Origin: Anaerorhabdus sp.
GTDB taxonomy: Bacteria > Bacillota_I > Bacilli_A > Erysipelotrichales > Erysipelotrichaceae
DNA: 64,000 nucleotides
NCBI RefSeq assembly: GCF_036637135.1
Contig: NZ_JAVWNC010000003.1
Coordinates: 1,024 to 65,023, forward strand
Direction: 5' to 3'
The notes beneath the pieces are model-generated. The model saw only the letters and a program-made list of their open reading frames with translations. It was not told the DNA's origin and did not search any database. This document shows positions 48,351 through 60,162 of this stretch, in pieces. A program made the position numbers and the translations under genes. Numbering within the stretch: position 1 is the first letter of the stretch; each line of letters starts with the position of its first letter.

Positions 48351-49313
48351 ATGATAATCATGATGTTAGGCGCTTTTCTTGTCAGTGCAGGAATCGTTTT
48401 AATCTTAATGCCTTACTATATTAATTACTTAAAAAAAATTAGTTTTAATCAAGCTGTAAGTGAATACAGTTTAGAAGAATATCAAAAGAAAGCTAAAACA
48501 CCAACTATGGGTGGTGTTTTATTCGTTATAGTACCAGTTCTTGTAACATTCTTATTTATACCAAAAGCAGTATTTGATATGGATGTTGCAATTGTATTGT
48601 TGGCATTTATAGGGTATGGAGCAATAGGGTTTATTGATGATTACATTATTGTTATTAAGCAAGATAATCAAGGCTTATTAGCAAGTCATAAATTTCTATT
48701 ACAAGTTTTATTGGCAGTTATATTCTTTATTGTTTATCAAAGTCATACTTCACTTGATATTGTGATTCCTATATTTCATACTGTATTACCACTAGGTGGC
48801 TTATATGGAGTCTTGATCTTCTTTATGTTTGTAGGTGGAAGTAACGCCGTAAACTTAACTGACGGTATGGATGGATTGGCAGCCGGTTGTAGTGTGATTG
48901 CTCTTGTACCATTTTTATTGTTTGCGTTACAAGCAAGAAATATTGCGATTGTTGTATTCATTAGCTCACTTTTAGGAGCTCTAATAGGATATTTACGATT
49001 CAACATTCATCCAGCGAAAATCTTTATGGGTGATACTGGTTCACTGGCGCTTGGTGGATCACTTGCAGCGCTAGCTATGGTTCTAAAACAGGAAGTAGCA
49101 TTTTTGTTTATTGGTGGAGTTTTTGTTTGGGAAACATTATGTGTCATCATTCAAATTAGTTCTGTTAAATTAAGGGGTAAACGAGTGTTCCGCTATACCC
49201 CAATTCATTATAGTTTTGTATTACAAGGTATGAAAGAAACCAAAGTAGTACGTTCATTTTGGATACTATCAGTAATTTGTGCTGTTGTTGGCTTTATTAT
49301 TGCAGTATTGTAA
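48351..49313 (+). CDS. mraY: Phospho-N-acetylmuramoyl-pentapeptide transferase MraY
   Basis: KTPTMGG, DDYIIV, NAVNLTDGMDGLA, MGDTGSLALGG. Confidence 0.95.
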   Translation: MIIMMLGAFLVSAGIVLILMPYYINYLKKISFNQAVSEYSLEEYQKKAKTPTMGGVLFVIVPVLVTFLFIPKAVFDMDVAIVLLAFIGYGAIGFIDDYIIVIKQDNQGLLASHKFLLQVLLAVIFFIVYQSHTSLDIVIPIFHTVLPLGGLYGVLIFFMFVGGSNAVNLTDGMDGLAAGCSVIALVPFLLFALQARNIAIVVFISSLLGALIGYLRFNIHPAKIFMGDTGSLALGGSLAALAMVLKQEVAFLFIGGVFVWETLCVIIQISSVKLRGKRVFRYTPIHYSFVLQGMKETKVVRSFWILSVICAVVGFIIAVL

Positions 49314-49352
49314 AGAAATAGATAAAAATTGATTAAACTAAGGAGGGGTAAT

Positions 49353-49646
49353 GTGCAAGAATTTGATGTTCATAATTCGCAAATTGAATTGGCTATTGTA
49401 TTAAAATTACAACAAATTCAACGTGAAGAATTACCTAACTTAACTTATCAAAATATAGAGGATGTGTTGTTTCAATTTGTGTGGGTTCATCAACCCCCGA
49501 GGTCTTTACACGATGCTGTAAATGATATATTATCTTTAACGGCAGATAAAATTGTAAGATACTTGTCTAAAATGGCAATTATTGAAGGTTATAACAAGCA
49601 TTTATCAGATTATAGTGATCTAATAGGAGGAAAGAGACATGAATAA
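49353..49646 (+). CDS. ComN-like post-transcriptional regulator family protein
   Basis: GTG 49353 follows AAGGAGGGG. About 97 aa. Its position immediately upstream of and overlapping secDF matches B. subtilis comN(yrzD)-secDF. Family call is from context and size. Confidence 0.5.
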   Translation: MQEFDVHNSQIELAIVLKLQQIQREELPNLTYQNIEDVLFQFVWVHQPPRSLHDAVNDILSLTADKIVRYLSKMAIIEGYNKHLSDYSDLIGGKRHE

Positions 49647-51933
49647 AAATACAAAGACAAAACGTTTAGTTGTATTTTTCGTAACAATTGCAGTTATTGC
49701 AGCTGTTATCTTGGGCTTCTCAAAAGGAATTTCAAAGAATTTAACTTTGGGGCTAGACCTACAAGGTGGATTTGAGATTTTATATGAAGTAAGTCCATTA
49801 GAAGAAGGTGGAACATTACCGGATATGTCGGCTGTTGCGAAGAGTGTCAGCAAACGTGTCAATGTTTTAGGTGTAAGTGAACCACAAATTATTATTGAAG
49901 GTGATAACCGTATTCGTGTGCAACTTGCAGGTGTTGAAAATCAAGACCAAGCACGTCGTATGATTTCGGCTACCGCAAATCTTACATTTAGAGATATAAA
50001 TGATGAACTTCTAGGCGATGCTTCTATTATTCAAGAAGGCGGAGCTACACTGGGATTCCAAGAAGGAAATCCTGTTGTTTCTCTTAAAATTGCAGATACA
50101 ACTGCATTTGGTGATTTAACTGAAAAAGTTTCAAATATGGGTTCTGGTAATAATTTAATCGTTACTTGGTTAGATTATTCTGAAGGTGATTCCTACAAAG
50201 AAGAAGCTCTTAAGTTACAAAATGGTGGAGAAGCTAAGTACATCAGTGCTGCTCAAGTAACACAAAGATTAGATAGTGATGCCATTATTTCGGGAAACTT
50301 TACAGAAGCTGAAGCAAGAGAACTTGCTGATTTAATCAGTTCAGGATCATTGCCAGTTAAAATGACTGAAATTTCTAGTAACGTAGTTAGTGCTGATTAT
50401 GGATTAGGTGCTTTAGCATCTACAAGCTTTGCCGGTATTGTTGGTATATCCTTAGTATTTGCATTTATGATTTTCATTTATCGTTTACCAGGTGTCATCG
50501 CAAGTATTATGTTAACTGTTTATATCTTTGCAGTATTTGCTATCTATAGCGCAATGGGGGCGGTATTTACACTTCCTGGTATTGCTGCGTTAGTGCTTGG
50601 AGTTGGTATGACTGTTGATGCGAATATCATCACATTCGAACGTATTCGTGATGAATTATATAAAGGACGTAGTTTGCAAAATGCAGTTAAAGAAGGACAA
50701 AATTTGTCATTCTCTACTATATTTGATGCTCAATTTACTACGTTGTTAGCAGGATTAATTATGTATGTGTTTGGTAATGGGGCAGTAAAAGGTTTCGCTA
50801 CAATGTTGATGATTACTGTAATTTGTACATTGGTTATTAACGTAGCAGTATCTCGTTTCCTTATGAACCAACTTGTAAATTCTGGTGTGTTAGATAATAA
50901 AAAAGGTTGGTTTGGAGTAAAAGTTACAAAGATTCCTAATGTATCGAAAAATGAAAAACAAACATATTTTGGTCCATTTGATAAAATTGATTTCTTAAAA
51001 CATGCAAAGAAAATGATTATTGTAAGCTTATCTATCTTTGCGGTAGCAATTGCTTTAGCTGGATTTAATATGGCATCTGGTAAGGGTGCGCTTAATTTGG
51101 GAATTGATTTTTCAAGTGGAACGAAGATTACTGTTACTTCTCCAGATAAGATGAATATTGCTGATGTAGAAGCAACATTTAAAGATTTAGGCTATGACAA
51201 AGTTAAGTATCAAGCTTCAGGAGATAATGCAGTTTACGCAACAATTAAAGATGCATTGAATACTGAACAACTTGATGAAATTAAATCGACATTCATGGGT
51301 ATCTATGGTGAAGAACCAGGGGATAACGTGGTAACTCCAGTTGTTGGTAGAGATTTAGTAAAAAATGCAATTCTATTAAGTCTATTGGCTTGGGTTGCAA
51401 TGTTAGTTTATATTACATTACGATTTAAATGGGATTATGCTGTAAGTTGTATTGTTGCGCTATTACATGACGTGGGAATTGTTATTGCAGTCTTCGTAAT
51501 TTTCCGTTTAGAATTCAATACCGAACTTATTTCAGTTATCTTGGCTATCATTGGATATTCAATTAATAACTCAATTGTAGTATTCGATCGTGTTCGTGAA
51601 GATTTAAATAATGCGAAGAGTGCTAAACTTACACCTGATTTCTATCGAGGTGTAGTTAATGAAGCATTAGATAATACGATTGTTCGTTCAGTATATAGTT
51701 CAATTACAACTATTTTACCTATCATATGCTTATTGTTGTTAGGATCAAATGCAATCTTTACATTCACATTTGCAATGTTTGTCGGATTAATTGCAGGTAC
51801 TTTATCAAGTGTCTTCATTGCTCCACAAATTTGGTTCTATATCCGTACACATGTGAAAGACAAACCAAAGAAAAAATCAAAAGCAAAACGTGAAGAACTT
51901 GATGAATATACTATCAAAGGAATTAATGCGTAA
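49639..51933 (+). CDS. secDF: Protein translocase subunit SecDF (fused)
   Basis: SecD N-terminus (LGLDLQGG) with six TM segments, followed by a SecF repeat (LGIDFSSGT) with six TM segments. Confidence 0.93.
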   Translation: MNKNTKTKRLVVFFVTIAVIAAVILGFSKGISKNLTLGLDLQGGFEILYEVSPLEEGGTLPDMSAVAKSVSKRVNVLGVSEPQIIIEGDNRIRVQLAGVENQDQARRMISATANLTFRDINDELLGDASIIQEGGATLGFQEGNPVVSLKIADTTAFGDLTEKVSNMGSGNNLIVTWLDYSEGDSYKEEALKLQNGGEAKYISAAQVTQRLDSDAIISGNFTEAEARELADLISSGSLPVKMTEISSNVVSADYGLGALASTSFAGIVGISLVFAFMIFIYRLPGVIASIMLTVYIFAVFAIYSAMGAVFTLPGIAALVLGVGMTVDANIITFERIRDELYKGRSLQNAVKEGQNLSFSTIFDAQFTTLLAGLIMYVFGNGAVKGFATMLMITVICTLVINVAVSRFLMNQLVNSGVLDNKKGWFGVKVTKIPNVSKNEKQTYFGPFDKIDFLKHAKKMIIVSLSIFAVAIALAGFNMASGKGALNLGIDFSSGTKITVTSPDKMNIADVEATFKDLGYDKVKYQASGDNAVYATIKDALNTEQLDEIKSTFMGIYGEEPGDNVVTPVVGRDLVKNAILLSLLAWVAMLVYITLRFKWDYAVSCIVALLHDVGIVIAVFVIFRLEFNTELISVILAIIGYSINNSIVVFDRVREDLNNAKSAKLTPDFYRGVVNEALDNTIVRSVYSSITTILPIICLLLLGSNAIFTFTFAMFVGLIAGTLSSVFIAPQIWFYIRTHVKDKPKKKSKAKREELDEYTIKGINA

Positions 51934-51991: not shown

Positions 51992-53008
51992 TTAAATTGT
52001 AGATTTTCTTTTAATGTCTTGTAATATGGGTTCTGGGCATGAACTAATAAAACTATAGCTAAACCAAAAAATGAGATACAAAGAAGAAGTCAGTTCTTGT
52101 AACGGACAAATTGTCATGATTTGTTCATAGAACAATGAATCACTTTTAATTTGTCTAGCTACATCATTTACGAGGATATTTAATTTTTTATTACATGACT
52201 CATATCGTGGACTATATGCAGACATTAATTCTGAGATATTTTTGTAGAACCCTTGTAATGGTAAAAGGATAGGCTGATATAATATAGTCCAACGCAATAA
52301 CAGGGACTGATTATTAATGAGTTCATGGCATCGTTGCATTAAATATTGTTGGAATTCTTCAAATGAGGAAGAGATGCTTAAATCCATGAAAAGTTTATAT
52401 GATTGGCTTGAAGTAGTATTAATTTCAATTGCAGATTGACTATATATAATTCGTTGTAAATAGATTAAATTATCTTTAAATTGTAGTTGTAATTCTGAAG
52501 AGATACGATCCCATAAAAACTTACGATATTCATCTACATGGATATCAAGAAATGGTGCAAGTATTAAGATAGCAATCATCCTTGCATCATTACATGGAAA
52601 TAAGGTTTCAATGTAGTTGTTTGTCGGTTCATCGAGTAATTTAGATATTGAATAATTATCACAAATATATTCTGGAGTTGCATTTGGAGGGATAGACTCT
52701 ATAATTGAACAAAGATTTTCCAGTTGCTTTTGATTTTCTATAATTTTATGCTTAAGTAGATTTACTTGTCGATGAAAAAAATAATTTGTCATTGTTGGAA
52801 AAGTGAATATTTCTTGTATAGTTTCTATTGAAAAACCAATCTGTCTAAATAAACAGATTAATTTAAGTTTCCGTAAGTCTTCATCATCCAAATCGTAATA
52901 ACCATTATTACTATTTTTAGTAGGATTGATCAAATTTTTCTCAATATAGAAGTGAATAGCTTTTTTAGTTAATCCTGTTATTTGTATTACTTCTTGTATC
53001 CGCATCAT
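51992..53008 (-). CDS. MerR-family transcriptional regulator with long (about 270 aa) C-terminal domain of unknown ligand
   Basis: N-terminal HTH IQEVIQITGLTKKAIHFYIEKNLINP...YYDLDDEDLRKLKLICLFRQIGFSIETIQ. Confidence 0.8.
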   Translation of the reverse strand: MMRIQEVIQITGLTKKAIHFYIEKNLINPTKNSNNGYYDLDDEDLRKLKLICLFRQIGFSIETIQEIFTFPTMTNYFFHRQVNLLKHKIIENQKQLENLCSIIESIPPNATPEYICDNYSISKLLDEPTNNYIETLFPCNDARMIAILILAPFLDIHVDEYRKFLWDRISSELQLQFKDNLIYLQRIIYSQSAIEINTTSSQSYKLFMDLSISSSFEEFQQYLMQRCHELINNQSLLLRWTILYQPILLPLQGFYKNISELMSAYSPRYESCNKKLNILVNDVARQIKSDSLFYEQIMTICPLQELTSSLYLIFWFSYSFISSCPEPILQDIKRKSTI

Positions 53009-53181: not shown

Positions 53182-55197
53182 ATGAAAAAACTGATTATTA
53201 GCTGTCTCGTCTTCTTGATGGCTGTATCAACGGTTGGATGTTCTAGCAAAGAAGTTGTTTTTGAAGGATCATCTAAGGGTTATGGTGGAGAAGTAGTAGC
53301 AAAAGTTACTTTCTCTGGTGACAAAATTAAAAGTATCGAGGTAACAGGTGATGGAGAAACTGAAGGTATTGGTTCTCTTGCAATTGAAGAGTTACCTGCA
53401 AAGATTGTGGAAGCAGGAAATACAGATATCGATGTAAAGACAGGAGCAACTGTCACATCAAAAGCAATATTCGCAGCAGTCAATAAAGCTATAGATTTAA
53501 AGAATGGTGTTACATCTAAACCTATTTCTTATACTGCAGGAACATATACAGGTGTTGGTGCAGGATATCATGGGGAAGTGAAAGTTGAAGTTGAATTTGA
53601 TGAAAAATCGATTTTATCGGTTAAGGTAGTTGAACAAGCAGAAACTCTTGGTATTGGGCAAGGGATGGATACATCTCCAGTTGAGTCTTTACCAATTAAA
53701 ATAGTGGAAACTCAGGGTTTAGGAGTGGATGTAGTTACAGGAGCAACAGTTACATCAAATGCAATTCTTACTGCTGTTAGTGATGCAGCAACACAAGCAG
53801 GTGCAGATTCAGAAGCATTAAAAGAGATAACAATGGAGAGCAAGGCAATCGATGAAACTTATGAAGTTGATGTTGTAATTGTGGGAGCAGGTGGTGCTGG
53901 TCTTGCAGCTGCGATACGTGCTTCTCAAGATGGTGCTGATGTATTGGTTGTTGAAAAACAAGGAATCATTGGTGGAGCAACAACACGTTCTGGTGGAAAA
54001 GTTATGGCGGCAGGAACTGACATTCAAAAAGAAGCAGGGATATCTGACAATGATGAAATGATGTATAACTATCTAAAAGAAATAGGTGGTGAATACATTG
54101 ATGATGTTAAGTTAAAAGCATTTACTGACAATGCGTTAGATGTTTACAATTGGATGATTGATTTAGGAGTTAATGTAATAAATGTAGAACCTATTCATAA
54201 ATCAATTGAGCCAAATCGTGTACATAACACTCTTGGTGGAGGCGGTATGACTGATGGTTTTGGTGGTAATATCACGGTGCCTTTATATGAGGAATATAAG
54301 GATTTAGATGGAGATATTGTTTACAATACAACTGTAAATGAAATAATTATGAATGATAAACAAGAAGCCGTTGGGGTAATAGGAGTAAAACCCGATGGTT
54401 CAAAAGTAACAGTTCATGCGAATGCAGTTATTATCGCAACAGGTGGATATGCACAAAATAAAGAAATGGTTCGATCATATGAAACTGAATTTCCTTTCTA
54501 TGTAACTTCAGTTCCAACGGGTAATGTTGGTGATGGAATCAAAATGGTTGAAAAAATTGGTGGACAAATTGAAGAATATCCAGCAACACAAACAGTTTTC
54601 TTAGATTTTAATTCTGGTACTGGAATTAATGAAGAAGCTGGATTAATTGTTACTATGGATGGAAAAAGATTCGTCAACGAATATAGCTATCAATATCATG
54701 TTGGAGATGCTTTGGCAAAAACTGGTAGTACAAATGGTTGGTATATCGCAACTGCAAATGATCCTACCCCAACTGTACAATATGCTATGACACAAGATAA
54801 GACATTAAAAGCTGCATCAATTGAAGAATTAGCACAGTTAATGGAAGTAGATGCAAAGGTTCTTCAAGAAACAATTGATCGCTATAATGGATTCGCAAAA
54901 AACCAAAAAGATGAAGATTTTGGTAAACCAGCGGAATTCTTATATCCAATTGAAGGAGAACAATATTACGCATTGAAATTGATGCCAGCAGTAACTGTTA
55001 CATTTGGTGGTATAGTGATTGATGAAAATGCTCAAGTTCTTGATCAAAATAATCAACCTATATCTAACCTATTTGCAGCAGGGGAAACTGCTTTTCCAGG
55101 CTTATTTGGAACAGAATACCCAGGTTGTGGAGTTGCGATTTCTGGAAGTGTTTATTTTGGGTTAGTTGCAGGTGAAAACGCTGCGAAGTTAAAATAA
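53182..55197 (+). CDS. Extracytoplasmic lipoprotein flavin reductase: two FMN_bind domains plus an FAD-dependent fumarate/urocanate-reductase-like domain
   Basis: Lipobox STVGCSS. Two flavinylation-type motifs, DVKTGATVTS (TGAT at 53440-53451) and DVVTGATVTS (53737-53748). FAD fold VVIVGAGGAGLAAAI. C-terminal FAAGE. Confidence 0.8.
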   Translation: MKKLIISCLVFLMAVSTVGCSSKEVVFEGSSKGYGGEVVAKVTFSGDKIKSIEVTGDGETEGIGSLAIEELPAKIVEAGNTDIDVKTGATVTSKAIFAAVNKAIDLKNGVTSKPISYTAGTYTGVGAGYHGEVKVEVEFDEKSILSVKVVEQAETLGIGQGMDTSPVESLPIKIVETQGLGVDVVTGATVTSNAILTAVSDAATQAGADSEALKEITMESKAIDETYEVDVVIVGAGGAGLAAAIRASQDGADVLVVEKQGIIGGATTRSGGKVMAAGTDIQKEAGISDNDEMMYNYLKEIGGEYIDDVKLKAFTDNALDVYNWMIDLGVNVINVEPIHKSIEPNRVHNTLGGGGMTDGFGGNITVPLYEEYKDLDGDIVYNTTVNEIIMNDKQEAVGVIGVKPDGSKVTVHANAVIIATGGYAQNKEMVRSYETEFPFYVTSVPTGNVGDGIKMVEKIGGQIEEYPATQTVFLDFNSGTGINEEAGLIVTMDGKRFVNEYSYQYHVGDALAKTGSTNGWYIATANDPTPTVQYAMTQDKTLKAASIEELAQLMEVDAKVLQETIDRYNGFAKNQKDEDFGKPAEFLYPIEGEQYYALKLMPAVTVTFGGIVIDENAQVLDQNNQPISNLFAAGETAFPGLFGTEYPGCGVAISGSVYFGLVAGENAAKLK

Positions 55198-55207
55198 ATT
55201 TTATAAG

Positions 55208-55247
55208 GTGAAGATTCTTTATACAAACTATCTTCACTTTTTCTTTT
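55208..55247 (+). terminator. Terminator
   Basis: Stem GTGAAGAT/ATCTTCAC followed by TTTTTCTTTT. Confidence 0.7.
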
Positions 55248-55315: not shown

Positions 55316-56677
55316 ATGAATTATAGTGAACTAAGACAAATATATCCAAACTTTGTATATCGTGATTTTCATATTGAAGAGAATGATAACGAGTTTAAAA
55401 TAACTTATGATTTTGAGATTGAAGGTCTTGAAGCTTTCAACCCGACTTATAGCATTCCAAAAAGAGGGACGCAATCTTTTCATGATAAGAGAATTGTTCG
55501 TGAATTGGTTTTTTCGCTTGGATTAGTAGAATGTATTAGTTATTGGAAAATAACATGTTCTCCTAATTTGATAATTCAATGTGGGGCATTAAATCATGAA
55601 CAAATTCAATGGTGGAAGAAGTTATACTTCCATGGATTAGGAGAGTTCTTTTATATCAATCAAATTAATCCAAAGTTTGACGATTTTGTATCAATACAGA
55701 GCGTAGGGGATAAGATTAGTGGAAATCATCTTATTCAAAACTATGATGGTCAACTTGTACCAGTTGGTGGTGGTAAGGATTCTTTTGTTTCTCTTGAAAT
55801 CTTAAAATCACTTTATGATCAAAATGATGCTTTTGTTATTAATAAAGTAATGTCTGCAATTCATGCAAGTGAAGCGGCAGGATACAAAGATAAATTAATT
55901 TATGTAAGTAGAACATTGGATCCTAGAATGTTAGAACTGAACAAAAAAGGATACTTAAATGGTCACACTCCTTTTTCAGCAATGGTAGCCTTTGCATCGA
56001 CTCTTGCAGCAGTATTGAATCAAAAAAGATATATTTGTTTATCAAATGAAGCTAGTGCAAATGAATCAACGGTATTAAATGATACGGTAAATCATCAATA
56101 TTCTAAGAGTTATGAGTTTGAAAAAGACTTCAATGAGTATAGTCAAAAATATTTACTACCCGAGATAGAATATTTTAGTTTATTAAGACCATTATCTGAA
56201 CTTCAAATTGCAAAGATATTTTCTTTAACACCACAATATCATTCGGTATTTAAGAGTTGTAATGTGGGTAGTAAACAAGAAATTTGGTGTTGTCATTGTG
56301 CGAAGTGTTTATTTGTATACTTATTAATGGCTGCCTATTTAAGCGATGAAGAGTGTATTTCAATATTTAAAGAAGATATGTTAAATAATGCAGAGTTATT
56401 TCCGATATTCATGGAGCTATGTGGGTTAAGTGAAAACAAGCCATTTGAGTGTGTAGGAACACGTGAGGAAGTTGTAAGTGCAATTAGTTTAGGTATTGAA
56501 CAACGTCTACAAACAAATCAAAAGCTTGGAATCCTTTATCAAATGTATTTAGAAAAAGTAGGTGCAATTGATTTAGTATCATTAAATGATATTAAAGAAG
56601 AATGGAATGGGGAACATCAAATCCCTGAACATTTATTACAATTAGTTAAAAATAAAGTTGAGGAATCATTCAAATGA
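55316..56677 (+). CDS. PP-loop (adenine nucleotide alpha-hydrolase-like) protein, candidate MurL-type UDP-MurNAc-L-Ala-L-Glu epimerase
   Basis: PP-loop-like PVGGGKDS (55763-55783). Cys cluster WCCHCAKC (56284-56307). Also NHQYSKS and KPFECVG blocks. 453 aa. ATGA overlap with the downstream MurD-family ligase gene. Confidence 0.45.
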   Translation: MNYSELRQIYPNFVYRDFHIEENDNEFKITYDFEIEGLEAFNPTYSIPKRGTQSFHDKRIVRELVFSLGLVECISYWKITCSPNLIIQCGALNHEQIQWWKKLYFHGLGEFFYINQINPKFDDFVSIQSVGDKISGNHLIQNYDGQLVPVGGGKDSFVSLEILKSLYDQNDAFVINKVMSAIHASEAAGYKDKLIYVSRTLDPRMLELNKKGYLNGHTPFSAMVAFASTLAAVLNQKRYICLSNEASANESTVLNDTVNHQYSKSYEFEKDFNEYSQKYLLPEIEYFSLLRPLSELQIAKIFSLTPQYHSVFKSCNVGSKQEIWCCHCAKCLFVYLLMAAYLSDEECISIFKEDMLNNAELFPIFMELCGLSENKPFECVGTREEVVSAISLGIEQRLQTNQKLGILYQMYLEKVGAIDLVSLNDIKEEWNGEHQIPEHLLQLVKNKVEESFK

Positions 56678-57990
56678 TAAGTAATGAAATTAAGAACGAG
56701 TTTGAAGGTAAAAAAATCGCTATTTGGGGATTTGGTTTAGAAGGTAAATCAACTTTCAATTTTATTAGAAGTATTTTACAAAATCAATTAATCACAATTA
56801 TTGATGATAAAGAAATTTATCTCGATGATATAAATTGTGAAATTAAACTAACACAAGATACCAGTTTTGATGAATATGATTTAATAATGAAAAGTCCGGG
56901 TATTGTGATTACAGATGATCATTTTCCATTTGATAAATTAAGTAGTCAGTCTCAAATTTTTCTTAAATACTATAAGAAACAAACAATTGGAATTACAGGT
57001 ACTAAAGGAAAAAGCACAACAAGCTCGCTTTTGTATCACGTATTAAGTCGTGGTTATAGTTCAGTTTTTTTAGTAGGGAATATTGGTGTTCCTTGTTTCA
57101 ATATTATTCATGATTTGAAAGAGGATTCAATTGTCGTTTTTGAGATATCATGTCATCAATTAGAGTATGCAAAAGATTCACCACATATTGGAGTTCTTTT
57201 GAATCTATTTGAAGAACATTTGGATCATTATGGTACTTTCGAAAAATATTGTGCAGCAAAGGAAAATGTATTCTTGCATCAAGAGTCGGATGATATTGCG
57301 ATTATTAATGCTAACTGCATTGATCAAATAAATAAAGCAAAACATCCCCTCCTTGCGTCAATGGATGAAACTGGAGATATTTATGCAATTGAAAATAAAT
57401 TGGTTAATTCTATTGGCACATTGATAGTTGATACGACCCGTGTTTCATTAATTGGACACCACAATTACTACAATATGGCGATTGTATATGCAATAGCATC
57501 GAACTATTTTGATATAAGCAATCAAGATTTCTTAGAAGCAATCGCAACATTTCAAACGTTAAAACATCGATTAGAAAATATTGGAGTTCATAATGGGATA
57601 CGGTATATTGATGATTCCATATCAACGATTTGTCAATCAACAATACAAGCAATTACTTCGTTGAATGATGTAGATACTGTGTTAGTAGGTGGATTAGATC
57701 GAGGTATAGATTATGATGAACTTATTGATTTTTTGATTGAAAAAAAAGTTCCGCATGTCATCTTTATGTATGCATCAGGTGAAAGAATGTTTGGTTTATG
57801 GACTGATCGTACAGAAAGAGAAGCGATATGGGTAAAGGATTTAAAGGATGCAGTAGGGCTTGCGAAGAAGATTACGTCTCCAGGTAAATCATGTTTGTTA
57901 TCACCAGCTTCGGCAAGCTATGGATACTTCAAAAACTTTGAAGAACGTGGAGATGTATTTAAAGAATTGGTAGAAAATAATGAAATATAA
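56674..57990 (+). CDS. murD: Mur ligase, MurD family (UDP-MurNAc-L-Ala:glutamate ligase; D- versus L-Glu specificity open)
   Basis: N-terminal Rossmann IWGFGLEGKS, P-loop GITGTKGKSTT, LNLFEEHLDHYG, C-terminal SPASASYGYFKNFEERG. Not located in the dcw cluster. Confidence 0.8.
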   Translation: MISNEIKNEFEGKKIAIWGFGLEGKSTFNFIRSILQNQLITIIDDKEIYLDDINCEIKLTQDTSFDEYDLIMKSPGIVITDDHFPFDKLSSQSQIFLKYYKKQTIGITGTKGKSTTSSLLYHVLSRGYSSVFLVGNIGVPCFNIIHDLKEDSIVVFEISCHQLEYAKDSPHIGVLLNLFEEHLDHYGTFEKYCAAKENVFLHQESDDIAIINANCIDQINKAKHPLLASMDETGDIYAIENKLVNSIGTLIVDTTRVSLIGHHNYYNMAIVYAIASNYFDISNQDFLEAIATFQTLKHRLENIGVHNGIRYIDDSISTICQSTIQAITSLNDVDTVLVGGLDRGIDYDELIDFLIEKKVPHVIFMYASGERMFGLWTDRTEREAIWVKDLKDAVGLAKKITSPGKSCLLSPASASYGYFKNFEERGDVFKELVENNEI

Positions 57991-59569
57991 AAAAATAGAT
58001 GTAGATGCATCAAAAATTGAAGAACAATATAAAACCAGCACACTTGTAAGCAAGGTGTTGGCTTTTCGTGAATGTAATGATGATCAAATAAAACAATTAC
58101 TAGATCATCCGATAAAACTAACAGAGAACTCATCTGAAATATTGAAACTTGTGTGTGAACGAATACAACAAGCAAAAACAAACAATGAAAAAATATTTGT
58201 TGGTGGAGATTATGATGCTGATGGATTATGTGCTACATCAATTATGGTAGACACGCTTACAATTTTAGGTATTGAAAATGGATATTATATTCCAAATCGA
58301 TTTAAGGAAGGTTATGGATTACATCCAAATATTGTGCAACTTGCTTATGATAAAGGTTATAAAATTATAATTACTGTTGATAATGGTGTTAAAGCTTACG
58401 AAGCCTTAGAAAAAGCAAAACAATTAGGGATTGAAGTCATTATCATGGATCATCATGAAATTGAAGAGAAACCACAATGCACATATTGTTTACATCCAGA
58501 TTACTTTGATGAACCCTTTAAGGGATTGTCAGGAGCTGGTGTAACGTTACAAGTTGCAAATCAATTGATAGGTGCTAATCCAAAACACATTGCTTTAGCT
58601 TGTGTTGCAACTATGGGAGATATTATGAACCTATGGGGTGAAAACCGAATTATTGTTCGACTTGGCTTAGAGATTATTAATCAACATTTAGTACCACATC
58701 TAGATGCATTGTTGGATACAACTACAGTTGTAACGGAAAAAGATATCGCATATCAAGTCGTACCAAAGTTAAATGCTGTGGGAAGACTACAAGAAGTCGC
58801 AAATCCAAATAATGTAGTAAAATTCTTTCTACAAAATAACCCAACTGAAATTAAACAATTCGCAATGCAAATGAATGAATTAAACAATCAAAGAAAACAA
58901 ATAACTTTACAAATGAATGTCTTAGCTGAAAAGAAAAATTTAGATGATGATTTTATCATAGTTTCTGATGAACGTTTCCATGAGGGATTAGTTGGTCTAG
59001 TTGCAGGTAAACTTGCGAACAAATATCACAAACCTTCGCTAGTCTTTTGTGAAATGGATGAAGTGGTTAAGGGTAGTGGTAGAACTGCGAATGGATTCGA
59101 TTTATATAGTTTCTTTCAAAATGGATTTGAAGAGGAATTCGTGAACTTTGGTGGTCATAGTGGCGCAATCGGATGCACTGTCAAAAAAGATAAATTTGAA
59201 CAATTCAAACAAAAGATAAAGAATAAATTCGCAAATATTGACATACAAGAAGAATCATATGAAACTGCTTGTGTTATTCATGAATCTGACTTATCTTTAT
59301 CCGCAATTACTGAATATCTAAGTCTTGCGCCATTTGGGCAAGGATTCAATGAGGTTGTATTTGCAATAGAAGGCTTGAAAATTAAGAAGACACAATTAAT
59401 TAAACAAAAGTTCTTAAAAATTCAATTTGAAAATAACATTGAGGCCATTTGGTTTGAAGTAGATCCAAGTGTTAATGTAGAAAAATTAAAGACTGTGTAT
59501 GGAGAGTGCACAATCAATGACTTTTTAGGACGTAAAAAGTGTTCGTTAATTGTTAAAACAATAGAATAA
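57980..59569 (+). CDS. recJ: Single-stranded-DNA-specific exonuclease RecJ (short form)
   Basis: DHH motifs GGDYDADG, DNG and MDHHE. DHHA1 GGHSGAIG. Overlaps the murD stop by 11 nt. Confidence 0.85.
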   Translation: MKYKKIDVDASKIEEQYKTSTLVSKVLAFRECNDDQIKQLLDHPIKLTENSSEILKLVCERIQQAKTNNEKIFVGGDYDADGLCATSIMVDTLTILGIENGYYIPNRFKEGYGLHPNIVQLAYDKGYKIIITVDNGVKAYEALEKAKQLGIEVIIMDHHEIEEKPQCTYCLHPDYFDEPFKGLSGAGVTLQVANQLIGANPKHIALACVATMGDIMNLWGENRIIVRLGLEIINQHLVPHLDALLDTTTVVTEKDIAYQVVPKLNAVGRLQEVANPNNVVKFFLQNNPTEIKQFAMQMNELNNQRKQITLQMNVLAEKKNLDDDFIIVSDERFHEGLVGLVAGKLANKYHKPSLVFCEMDEVVKGSGRTANGFDLYSFFQNGFEEEFVNFGGHSGAIGCTVKKDKFEQFKQKIKNKFANIDIQEESYETACVIHESDLSLSAITEYLSLAPFGQGFNEVVFAIEGLKIKKTQLIKQKFLKIQFENNIEAIWFEVDPSVNVEKLKTVYGECTINDFLGRKKCSLIVKTIE

Positions 59570-60133: not shown

Positions 60134-60138
60134 ATAAT

Positions 60139-60162
60139 CGAAGAGGAATCTTCGGTTTTTTT
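60139..60162 (+). terminator. apt terminator
   Basis: CGAAGA-GGAA-TCTTCG followed by GTTTTTTT. Confidence 0.75.

Follow-up and report, generated by a model that had tools for sequence, protein, structure and literature searches.

How does Anaerorhabdus sp. (Erysipelotrichaceae) obtain the D-glutamate (D-Glu) of its peptidoglycan: by attaching D-Glu directly, or by attaching L-glutamate (L-Glu) and inverting it afterwards, as MurD2 and MurL do in Xanthomonas? The question is raised by two adjacent genes in a 64-kb stretch of DNA from this low-GC Firmicute (33% G+C), the whole of which we call the window. Exact protein matches assign this DNA to Anaerorhabdus sp. Open reading frame (ORF) 1, labelled 'hypothetical protein' by NCBI, runs directly into ORF 2, labelled D-glutamate ligase (coordinates of these and other features are collected in Table 1). 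A preliminary description of the window had proposed a MurL/MurD2-type route here, and this proposal is now supported by the family profile NF041275, by synteny, by gene fusions and by specificity residues; both ORFs, their ATGA overlap and the GGGKDS and WCCHCAKC motifs that it had pointed out are all present in the sequence. By sequence, ORF 1 and ORF 2 are clear relatives of the Xanthomonas MurL/MurD2 system, and we consider it quite likely that the pair encodes this alternative route to peptidoglycan D-Glu. The kind of pathway is already known (Feng et al. 2017, reviewed in PMC8788868 and PMC5808125), and the family has entered Pfam, NCBIfam and UniProt naming.

ORF 1 had one strong profile match only, to NF041275 (MurL_Xanthomonadales, UDP-N-acetyl-alpha-D-muramoyl-L-alanyl-L-glutamate epimerase; E 4.3e-73), spanning residues 13-445 of the protein and positions 10-444 of the 447 in the model. 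Consistently with this match, ORF 1 aligned with the annotated MurL of X. sacchari (34% identity, E 5e-59), and the two proteins have in common the blocks GGGKDS, NGH-P, VNHQ-SK, SLLRPLSEL, SCN...WC-x2-C-x-KC and KPFECVG. For the A. furcosa and Solobacterium orthologues the precomputed Pfam assignments are MurL_N (PF26299) and MurL_epimerase_C (PF26298), and the A. furcosa protein, 81% identical to ORF 1, is named UDP-N-acetyl-alpha-D-muramoyl-L-alanyl-L-glutamate epimerase in UniRef. A Pfam scan of ORF 1 itself, with a model set that did not include the MurL families, returned a weak DUF6395 match only; since the MurL of X. sacchari was also left without a match, this null result says nothing against MurL. 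A sequence search of the PDB with ORF 1 gave no match even at E 10.

We explored how firmly the two genes are tied together in a genome scan holding one genome per species, linkage being counted in the best 80 of at least 595 related genomes. murD lay immediately 3' of murL, on the same strand, in 78 of these 80 loci, as it does in A. furcosa and Solobacterium, so that the pairing seen in the window is co-conserved in relatives. The stop and start codons of the window pair overlap, implying that murL and murD are translationally coupled, and a GAGGA Shine-Dalgarno sequence stands about 10 nt 5' of the murD ATG. The genes also overlap in A. furcosa (8 nt), in Solobacterium (4 nt) and in X. sacchari (20 nt), where murL again precedes murD; the likeness to Xanthomonas in order and coupling that had been suggested thus holds. 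Moreover, at least three of the 80 best loci encode fusions of the two proteins. An exhaustive search at the level of 50%-identity cluster representatives yielded 2659 clusters at E <= 1e-3 and 1186 at E <= 1e-30; among the 150 best representatives, 35 were at least 829 aa long, and all seven long proteins that were checked proved to be MurL+MurD fusions, in both domain orders (MurL-MurD in P0134, P0147 and P0158; MurD-MurL in P0177 and P0191). Because the coupling is kept across phyla and the fusion occurs in both orders, these data are strong evidence that MurL and MurD would catalyse consecutive steps.

Some members of the family depart from this arrangement. One long protein, P0173 (1247 aa), is a triple fusion in which MurL and MurD are joined by an M20-type amidohydrolase/carboxypeptidase domain (residues 900-1241), hinting that certain organisms may link one more step to these two. 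The two exceptions to adjacency among the 80 loci are L065, which retains the recJ-relA neighbours and has a 222-aa ORF in the place of murD, and L081, where murL stands alone; they could reflect relocation of murD or a MurL working with another partner. MurL-family genes were also found on mobilizable actinobacterial plasmids. Plasmid pFRP1-2 of Pseudonocardia sp. EC080625-04 (L086, 3962-5356) encodes a family member with all motifs and 322 bits against NF041275, and two other Pseudonocardia plasmids (hits H3 and H4) carry such genes as well. The pFRP1-2 gene has no adjacent murD, its neighbours being a gene for a large WD40-repeat protein and integrases, and this MurL-like orphan may have another substrate. 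Finally, the X. sacchari R1 pair lies on NZ_CP010410.1 (L085; 508,653 bp, named 'plasmid unnamed'), together with a gene for a bifunctional aspartate kinase/diaminopimelate decarboxylase; these cell-wall genes are presumably essential, and the replicon is probably not a plasmid of the ordinary kind but a chromid or part of a chromosome.

MurL has been said to lack 'known conserved domains' (PMC8788868). A confident AlphaFold2 model of ORF 1, built with 43 homologues (predicted local distance difference test 92.4, predicted template-modelling score 0.91), predicts a QueC-like PP-loop ATPase fold: its best fold matches in the PDB are QatC, QueC, TtuA, MnmA and argininosuccinate synthase, all PP-loop adenylating enzymes, which bears out the PP-loop identity first suggested from the motif. 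In the model GGGKDS, the predicted ATP pyrophosphatase site, is placed between strand 146-149 and helix 154-162, as in the PP-loop superfamily. Across 41 diverse homologues G152, G153, D155 and S156 do not vary, and at least 90% keep G151 and K154; the motif reads GGGKDS in X. sacchari and GGGRDS in the Pseudonocardia plasmid homologue. This conservation, together with the fold of an adenylating enzyme, is indirect support for an ATP-dependent chemistry with AMP release, and the predicted fold fits an adenylation step. The second motif, WCCHCAKC at residues 324-331, belongs to a four-cysteine cluster (C315, C325, C328 and C331) that is invariant in the same 41 homologues and kept in X. sacchari MurL; it is probably a structural zinc site as in QueC, whose spacing we take it to resemble. 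Invariant Cys379 (in KPFECVG), His217 and His260 are candidate acid/base residues.

ORF 1 thus resembles QueC, QatC and Cap9 in its predicted PP-loop ATP pyrophosphatase fold, in a motif of the SGGxDS type and in a cysteine cluster, C-x(n)-C-x2-C-x2-C, towards the C-terminus; QueC-like enzymes adenylate a carboxylate to activate it and release AMP, as is proposed for MurL. Unlike QueC, to which it has no significant sequence similarity, MurL possesses an extra N-terminal MurL_N domain of about 130 aa and a helical C-terminal extension; its substrate is a UDP-muramyl dipeptide, which it epimerises, where the QueC-like enzymes form a nitrile or a conjugate. Might ORF 1 nevertheless be a generic PP-loop enzyme of the QueC-like or tRNA-thiolation type, unrelated to the cell wall and beside murD by accident? 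The fold matches to QatC, QueC and TtuA would agree with this, as would weak profile matches to TtcA (PP-loop, residues 128-169) and NcsA. However, these two matches are marginal (E 0.0017 and 0.096, versus 4e-73 for MurL), the whole-chain TM-score between the model and QatC is only about 0.4, and an accidental neighbour is hard to reconcile with adjacency to murD in nearly all loci across phyla and with the fusions. We therefore give this explanation next to no probability: the MurL profile match, the fusions and the adjacency effectively refute it.

We next turned to ORF 2. It passes the murD profile TIGR01087 (285.8 bits; cut-off 212), and so does a true Xanthomonas MurD2 (298 bits); the label 'D-glutamate ligase' is therefore uninformative on stereochemistry, and automatic annotation through this profile labels L-Glu-type ligases as D-glutamate ligases. 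The alignment of ORF 2 took in 79 ligases from other genomes whose genes adjoin murL, besides E. coli MurD and X. sacchari MurD2; five MurDs of solved structure (E. coli, S. agalactiae, T. maritima, 7sy9 and 7sir) served as the canonical set for comparison. Throughout the aligned ligases, the catalytic residues N138, E157, H183, K198 and T321 are invariant. Near the Glu site, X. oryzae MurD2 differs from E. coli MurD at four positions (Glu197/Asp182, Arg358/Lys348, Pro433/Ala414 and Phe435/Leu416); the double mutant E197D/R358K turns MurD2 to D-Glu use, mutation at Pro433 (P433A) or Phe435 leaves its specificity unchanged, and K319T lets E. coli MurD gain L-Glu acceptance (PMC8788868). At position 319 (E. 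coli numbering), where all five canonical enzymes have the Lys of a DSKxT motif, ORF 2 has Ile316 and X. sacchari Ile339, and the MurL-linked ligases have Ile in 80 of 81 cases and Leu in one. At position 182, E. coli Asp is replaced by Glu181 in ORF 2, by Glu206 in X. sacchari and by Glu in 70 of the 81, and at position 348 E. coli Lys is replaced by Arg343, by Arg367 and, without exception, by Arg (81/81). Position 416, Leu in E. coli and Phe in X. sacchari, is Tyr416 in ORF 2 and mostly Tyr in the linked ligases (Tyr 78, Phe 1, gap 2).

Several observations weigh against assigning the pair to the MurD2/MurL route. The score of ORF 1 against NF041275 (246 bits) is far under the curated cut-off of 700, which annotated X. 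sacchari MurL exceeds with 836; since this model is a narrow Xanthomonadales equivalog, a score below its cut-off, like that of the actinobacterial homologue, marks divergence and not exclusion from the wider family. Arg at position 348 is found in the canonical MurD of S. agalactiae too and is not sufficient alone; the aromatic residue at 416 is matched by Trp in the canonical D-Glu ligase of S. agalactiae and by Phe in that of T. maritima; and position 414 of ORF 2 is Ala414, as in E. coli, instead of the Pro of MurD2 (linked ligases: Ala 61, Ser 17, other 3). Eleven of the 81 MurL-linked ligases have Asp, not Glu, at position 182. Lastly, the search for murI covered the 64-kb window only, and a second, canonical murD may lie elsewhere in the genome.

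Because Arg348 and the aromatic 416 occur in canonical MurDs as well, the change from DSKxT to DSIST, a signature derived in this analysis, together with Glu at 182 appears to be the cleanest marker of an L-Glu ligase. The preliminary description had looked for the difference at the C-terminus, where ORF 2 reads SPASASYGYFKNF (residues 410-422) and E. coli MurD reads SPACASLDQFKNF; both segments were given correctly, but the SPASASY segment had to be rejected as a specificity marker on account of the same canonical Trp and Phe, and the informative residues are Glu181, Ile316 and Arg343.

The residues bear directly on whether the pair could be an auxiliary or proofreading system, in a genome that also has murI or a D-amino-acid aminotransferase, with a ligase that takes D-Glu or both isomers and a MurL-like enzyme that rescues an L-Glu-bearing precursor. 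The Asp kept at position 182 in some linked ligases would accord with such a role, and so would the MurD of S. mutans, which has Arg at the 348 position and accepts a little L-Glu in vitro (PMC8788868). murI may be present in the genome, and, given how widely Clostridia and Bacteroidales carry the family, MurI may well occur beside it in some hosts. On the other hand, Lys319 is lost in every linked ligase, and the Ile of true MurD2 in its place points to a ligase dedicated to L-Glu; the stable fusions, with either protein first, suggest that the two steps follow each other of necessity; and the MurD2/MurL organisms described so far are without D-Glu-forming genes (PMC8788868), the lack of glutamate racemase and D-amino-acid aminotransferase being the hallmark of the pathway at the level of the organism. 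In addition, as the division and cell wall (dcw) cluster of the window has no murD at its usual place, ORF 2 is probably the only MurD. The ORF list confirmed the earlier reading that mraY is followed by a ComN-like ORF and secDF, and tblastn with E. coli MurD and the window MurD as queries found no second MurD-family gene in the 64 kb, in agreement with the single ligase claimed before. No murI was found in the same 64 kb by tblastn with E. coli MurI, and an NCBIfam scan of ten mid-size window ORFs gave neither murI nor dat. On balance, we judge an auxiliary role unlikely.

In the MurD2/MurL route, which we prefer, the MurD-family ligase encoded by ORF 2 would use ATP to attach L-Glu, not D-Glu, to UDP-N-acetylmuramic acid (MurNAc)-L-Ala. 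The MurL-family PP-loop ATP pyrophosphatase encoded by ORF 1 would then adenylate the alpha-carboxylate of the terminal L-Glu, converting one ATP to AMP; adenylation would acidify the alpha-proton and allow its loss and re-addition, turning L-Glu into D-Glu, and MurE would carry the stem peptide onward. These chemical steps are taken from the work on Xanthomonas, where they are themselves a hypothesis, although the epimerase activity of Xanthomonas MurL has been demonstrated (PMC8788868): it is an ATP- and Mg2+-dependent, unidirectional L-to-D epimerisation with release of AMP. Unlike the MurD + MurI pathway, stereo-inversion would follow ligation, on the nucleotide-peptide, and would cost extra ATP. 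By analogy, we infer the same two enzyme activities, and replacement of glutamate racemase, in Anaerorhabdus.

The same proposed adenylation of the alpha-carboxylate could start a different reaction, such as amidation or the joining of an amino acid to it for B-type cross-links; a modification of the alpha-carboxylate for such cross-links was the second choice of the preliminary description. That the MurL mechanism is still hypothetical and that the PDB holds no MurL structure leave some room for it. Erysipelothrix and some of its relatives have a group-B peptidoglycan, cross-linked via the alpha-carboxyl of D-Glu, which also counts in its favour. Nevertheless, the same pair with the same invariant residues is found in Xanthomonas, whose MurL is a demonstrated epimerase, and no amidotransferase or ligase partner is conserved beside murL in the A. 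furcosa and Solobacterium loci. The pair is also widespread in Lachnospirales, Oscillospirales and Bacteroidales, orders that to our knowledge are not noted for B-type walls. Moreover, E. rhusiopathiae, a classic B-type organism, possesses murI, and the even spacing of its pbp, mraY and murD locus tags (NBX27_02795, 02800, 02805) places murD next after mraY (PMC9637936), in contrast to the window, A. furcosa and Solobacterium, where that position is without murD. Taken together, these observations make a B-type or amidation function very improbable.

Compared with X. oryzae MurL (XOO_1319) and MurD2 (XOO_1320), the preferred model for the window pair, ORF 1 and ORF 2 show the same order with overlapping frames (as seen in X. 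sacchari), similar sizes (about 450 aa and about 440-480 aa), MurL homology that runs the full length and takes in every conserved block, and Glu, Ile, Arg and an aromatic residue at positions 182, 319, 348 and 416. They differ in that identity is only 34% for MurL and 24% for the ligase, in the residues at 414 (Ala, where MurD2 has Pro) and 416 (Tyr, where MurD2 has Phe), in a host outside the published range, and in their neighbours, which are secDF upstream and recJ-apt-relA downstream in the window; no dcw genes lie within 4 kb of the X. sacchari pair. The Xanthomonas dcw cluster is presumably without murD as well. With the canonical MurDs that work together with MurI (E. coli, S. agalactiae and E. 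rhusiopathiae), ORF 2 has in common the three-domain Mur ligase architecture, a passing TIGR01087 score and the catalytic residues; unlike them, it carries Ile for Lys319 and Glu for Asp182, and its gene is coupled to murL and does not follow mraY.

Homologues of ORF 1 proved to be far more widespread than the literature would suggest. MurL-family proteins were found in at least 595 species genomes, in Erysipelotrichales, Lachnospirales, Oscillospirales and Bacteroidales. The best 80 matches comprise 27 loci from Lachnospirales, 16 from unspecified Clostridia, 13 from Oscillospirales, 10 from unspecified Bacilli or Bacillota and seven each from Erysipelotrichales and Bacteroidota; most are metagenome-assembled genomes, in which single taxon labels can be wrong, and the Bacteroidota loci include some on long contigs (L049, a 1.09-Mb Marinilabiliales contig; L078, a 228-kb Bacteroidales contig). 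In contrast, the reviewed hosts are Xanthomonadales, three alphaproteobacterial genera and rare actinomycetes, a distribution called limited (PMC8788868), and the discoverers of the pathway, who placed it in relatively few genera, proposed it as a narrow-spectrum drug target in Xanthomonas and Stenotrophomonas. We found no report of MurL/MurD2 in Firmicutes or Bacteroidota in the searchable literature, which leaves out most subscription papers. The module had been described as unusual for a Gram-positive genome: this is so relative to the literature, whereas in sequence databases a MurL/MurD2-type pair is common among gut anaerobes.

That the MurD2/MurL route is the normal supply of peptidoglycan D-Glu in much of the anaerobic gut microbiota (Erysipelotrichales, many Lachnospirales and Oscillospirales, and some Bacteroidales), with hosts correspondingly without glutamate racemase, is a broader proposition, to which we give slightly less than an even chance. 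If it is true, the view of the pathway as confined to a few genera, and as a pathogen-specific narrow-spectrum target, would be overturned, and the change from DSKxT to DSIST would provide a simple marker of L-Glu-type ligases, which are now all annotated as D-Glu ligases. The spread over these genomes, mostly of commensal gut Firmicutes and Bacteroidales, alters the expected spectrum of any inhibitor, and metabolic reconstructions in which D-Glu synthesis is judged from murI would be affected. The Ile-for-Lys319 signature could sort MurD2-type from MurD-type ligases by their sequence alone. For the window itself, our data suggest that the NCBI label of ORF 1 is empty and that of ORF 2 wrong in its stereochemistry.

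Table 1. Features of the murL-murD locus, with positions numbered from the first letter of the window.
Feature	Position	Strand	Remarks
mraY	48351-49313	+	End of the truncated dcw cluster mraZ-rsmH-ftsL-pbp-mraY; no murD after mraY
ComN-like Post_transc_reg ORF	49329-49646		Directly after mraY
secDF	49639-51933		After the ComN-like ORF
Terminator-like hairpin with T-run	55205-55247	+	After the upstream flavoprotein gene; fold energy -11.7 kcal/mol, z-score -4.2 versus shuffles
ORF 1, murL-like	55316-56677	+	453 aa
PP-loop motif GGGKDS	55766-55783	+	Residues 151-156; predicted ATP pyrophosphatase (adenylation) site
Cys cluster C315-x9-C325-x2-C328-x2-C331	56258-56308	+	Putative structural zinc site
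ATGA stop/start overlap of murL and murD	56674-56677	+	TGA stop 56675-56677, ATG start 56674-56676; read directly from the sequence
ORF 2, murD-family ligase	56674-57990	+	438 aa
MurD Glu181	57214-57216	+	Equivalent to E. coli Asp182 and X. oryzae MurD2 Glu197
MurD Ile316 (DDSIST)	57619-57621	+	Equivalent to E. coli Lys319 (NDSKAT)
MurD Arg343	57700-57702	+	Equivalent to E. coli Lys348 and X. oryzae MurD2 Arg358
recJ-like gene	57980-59569	+	Pfam DHH, DHHA1 and RecJ_OB; start overlaps the murD end by 11 nt

The surroundings of the pair are largely conserved in its close relatives. In A. furcosa and Solobacterium the gene order is mraZ-rsmH-ftsL-pbp-mraY-comN-secDF-(0 or 1 gene)-murL-murD-recJ-apt-relA, and the segment murL-murD-recJ-apt-relA is common to these two genomes and the window, where the recJ-like gene probably belongs to the murL-murD operon. 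With the terminator-like hairpin 5' of it, murL would open a transcription unit of its own; the hairpin was spotted by eye and backed by RNA folding, and a consensus terminator scan did not pick it up. A consensus promoter scan of the window gave fewer promoter-like sites than shuffled sequences. The next terminator-like hairpin comes only after apt (60136-60157), and the cell-wall precursor genes may therefore share a transcript with recJ and apt.

Between secDF and murL the window carries a gene for a MerR-family regulator (51992-53008, minus strand) and, divergent from it, a gene for a 671-aa lipoprotein-like flavoprotein (53182-55197) with two FMN_bind domains and a fumarate-reductase-type FAD_binding_2 domain. 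Neither is at that place in A. furcosa, and Solobacterium has a haloacid dehalogenase-type (HAD) hydrolase there instead; the two genes appear to be an extracytoplasmic reductase module that was inserted in this lineage only.

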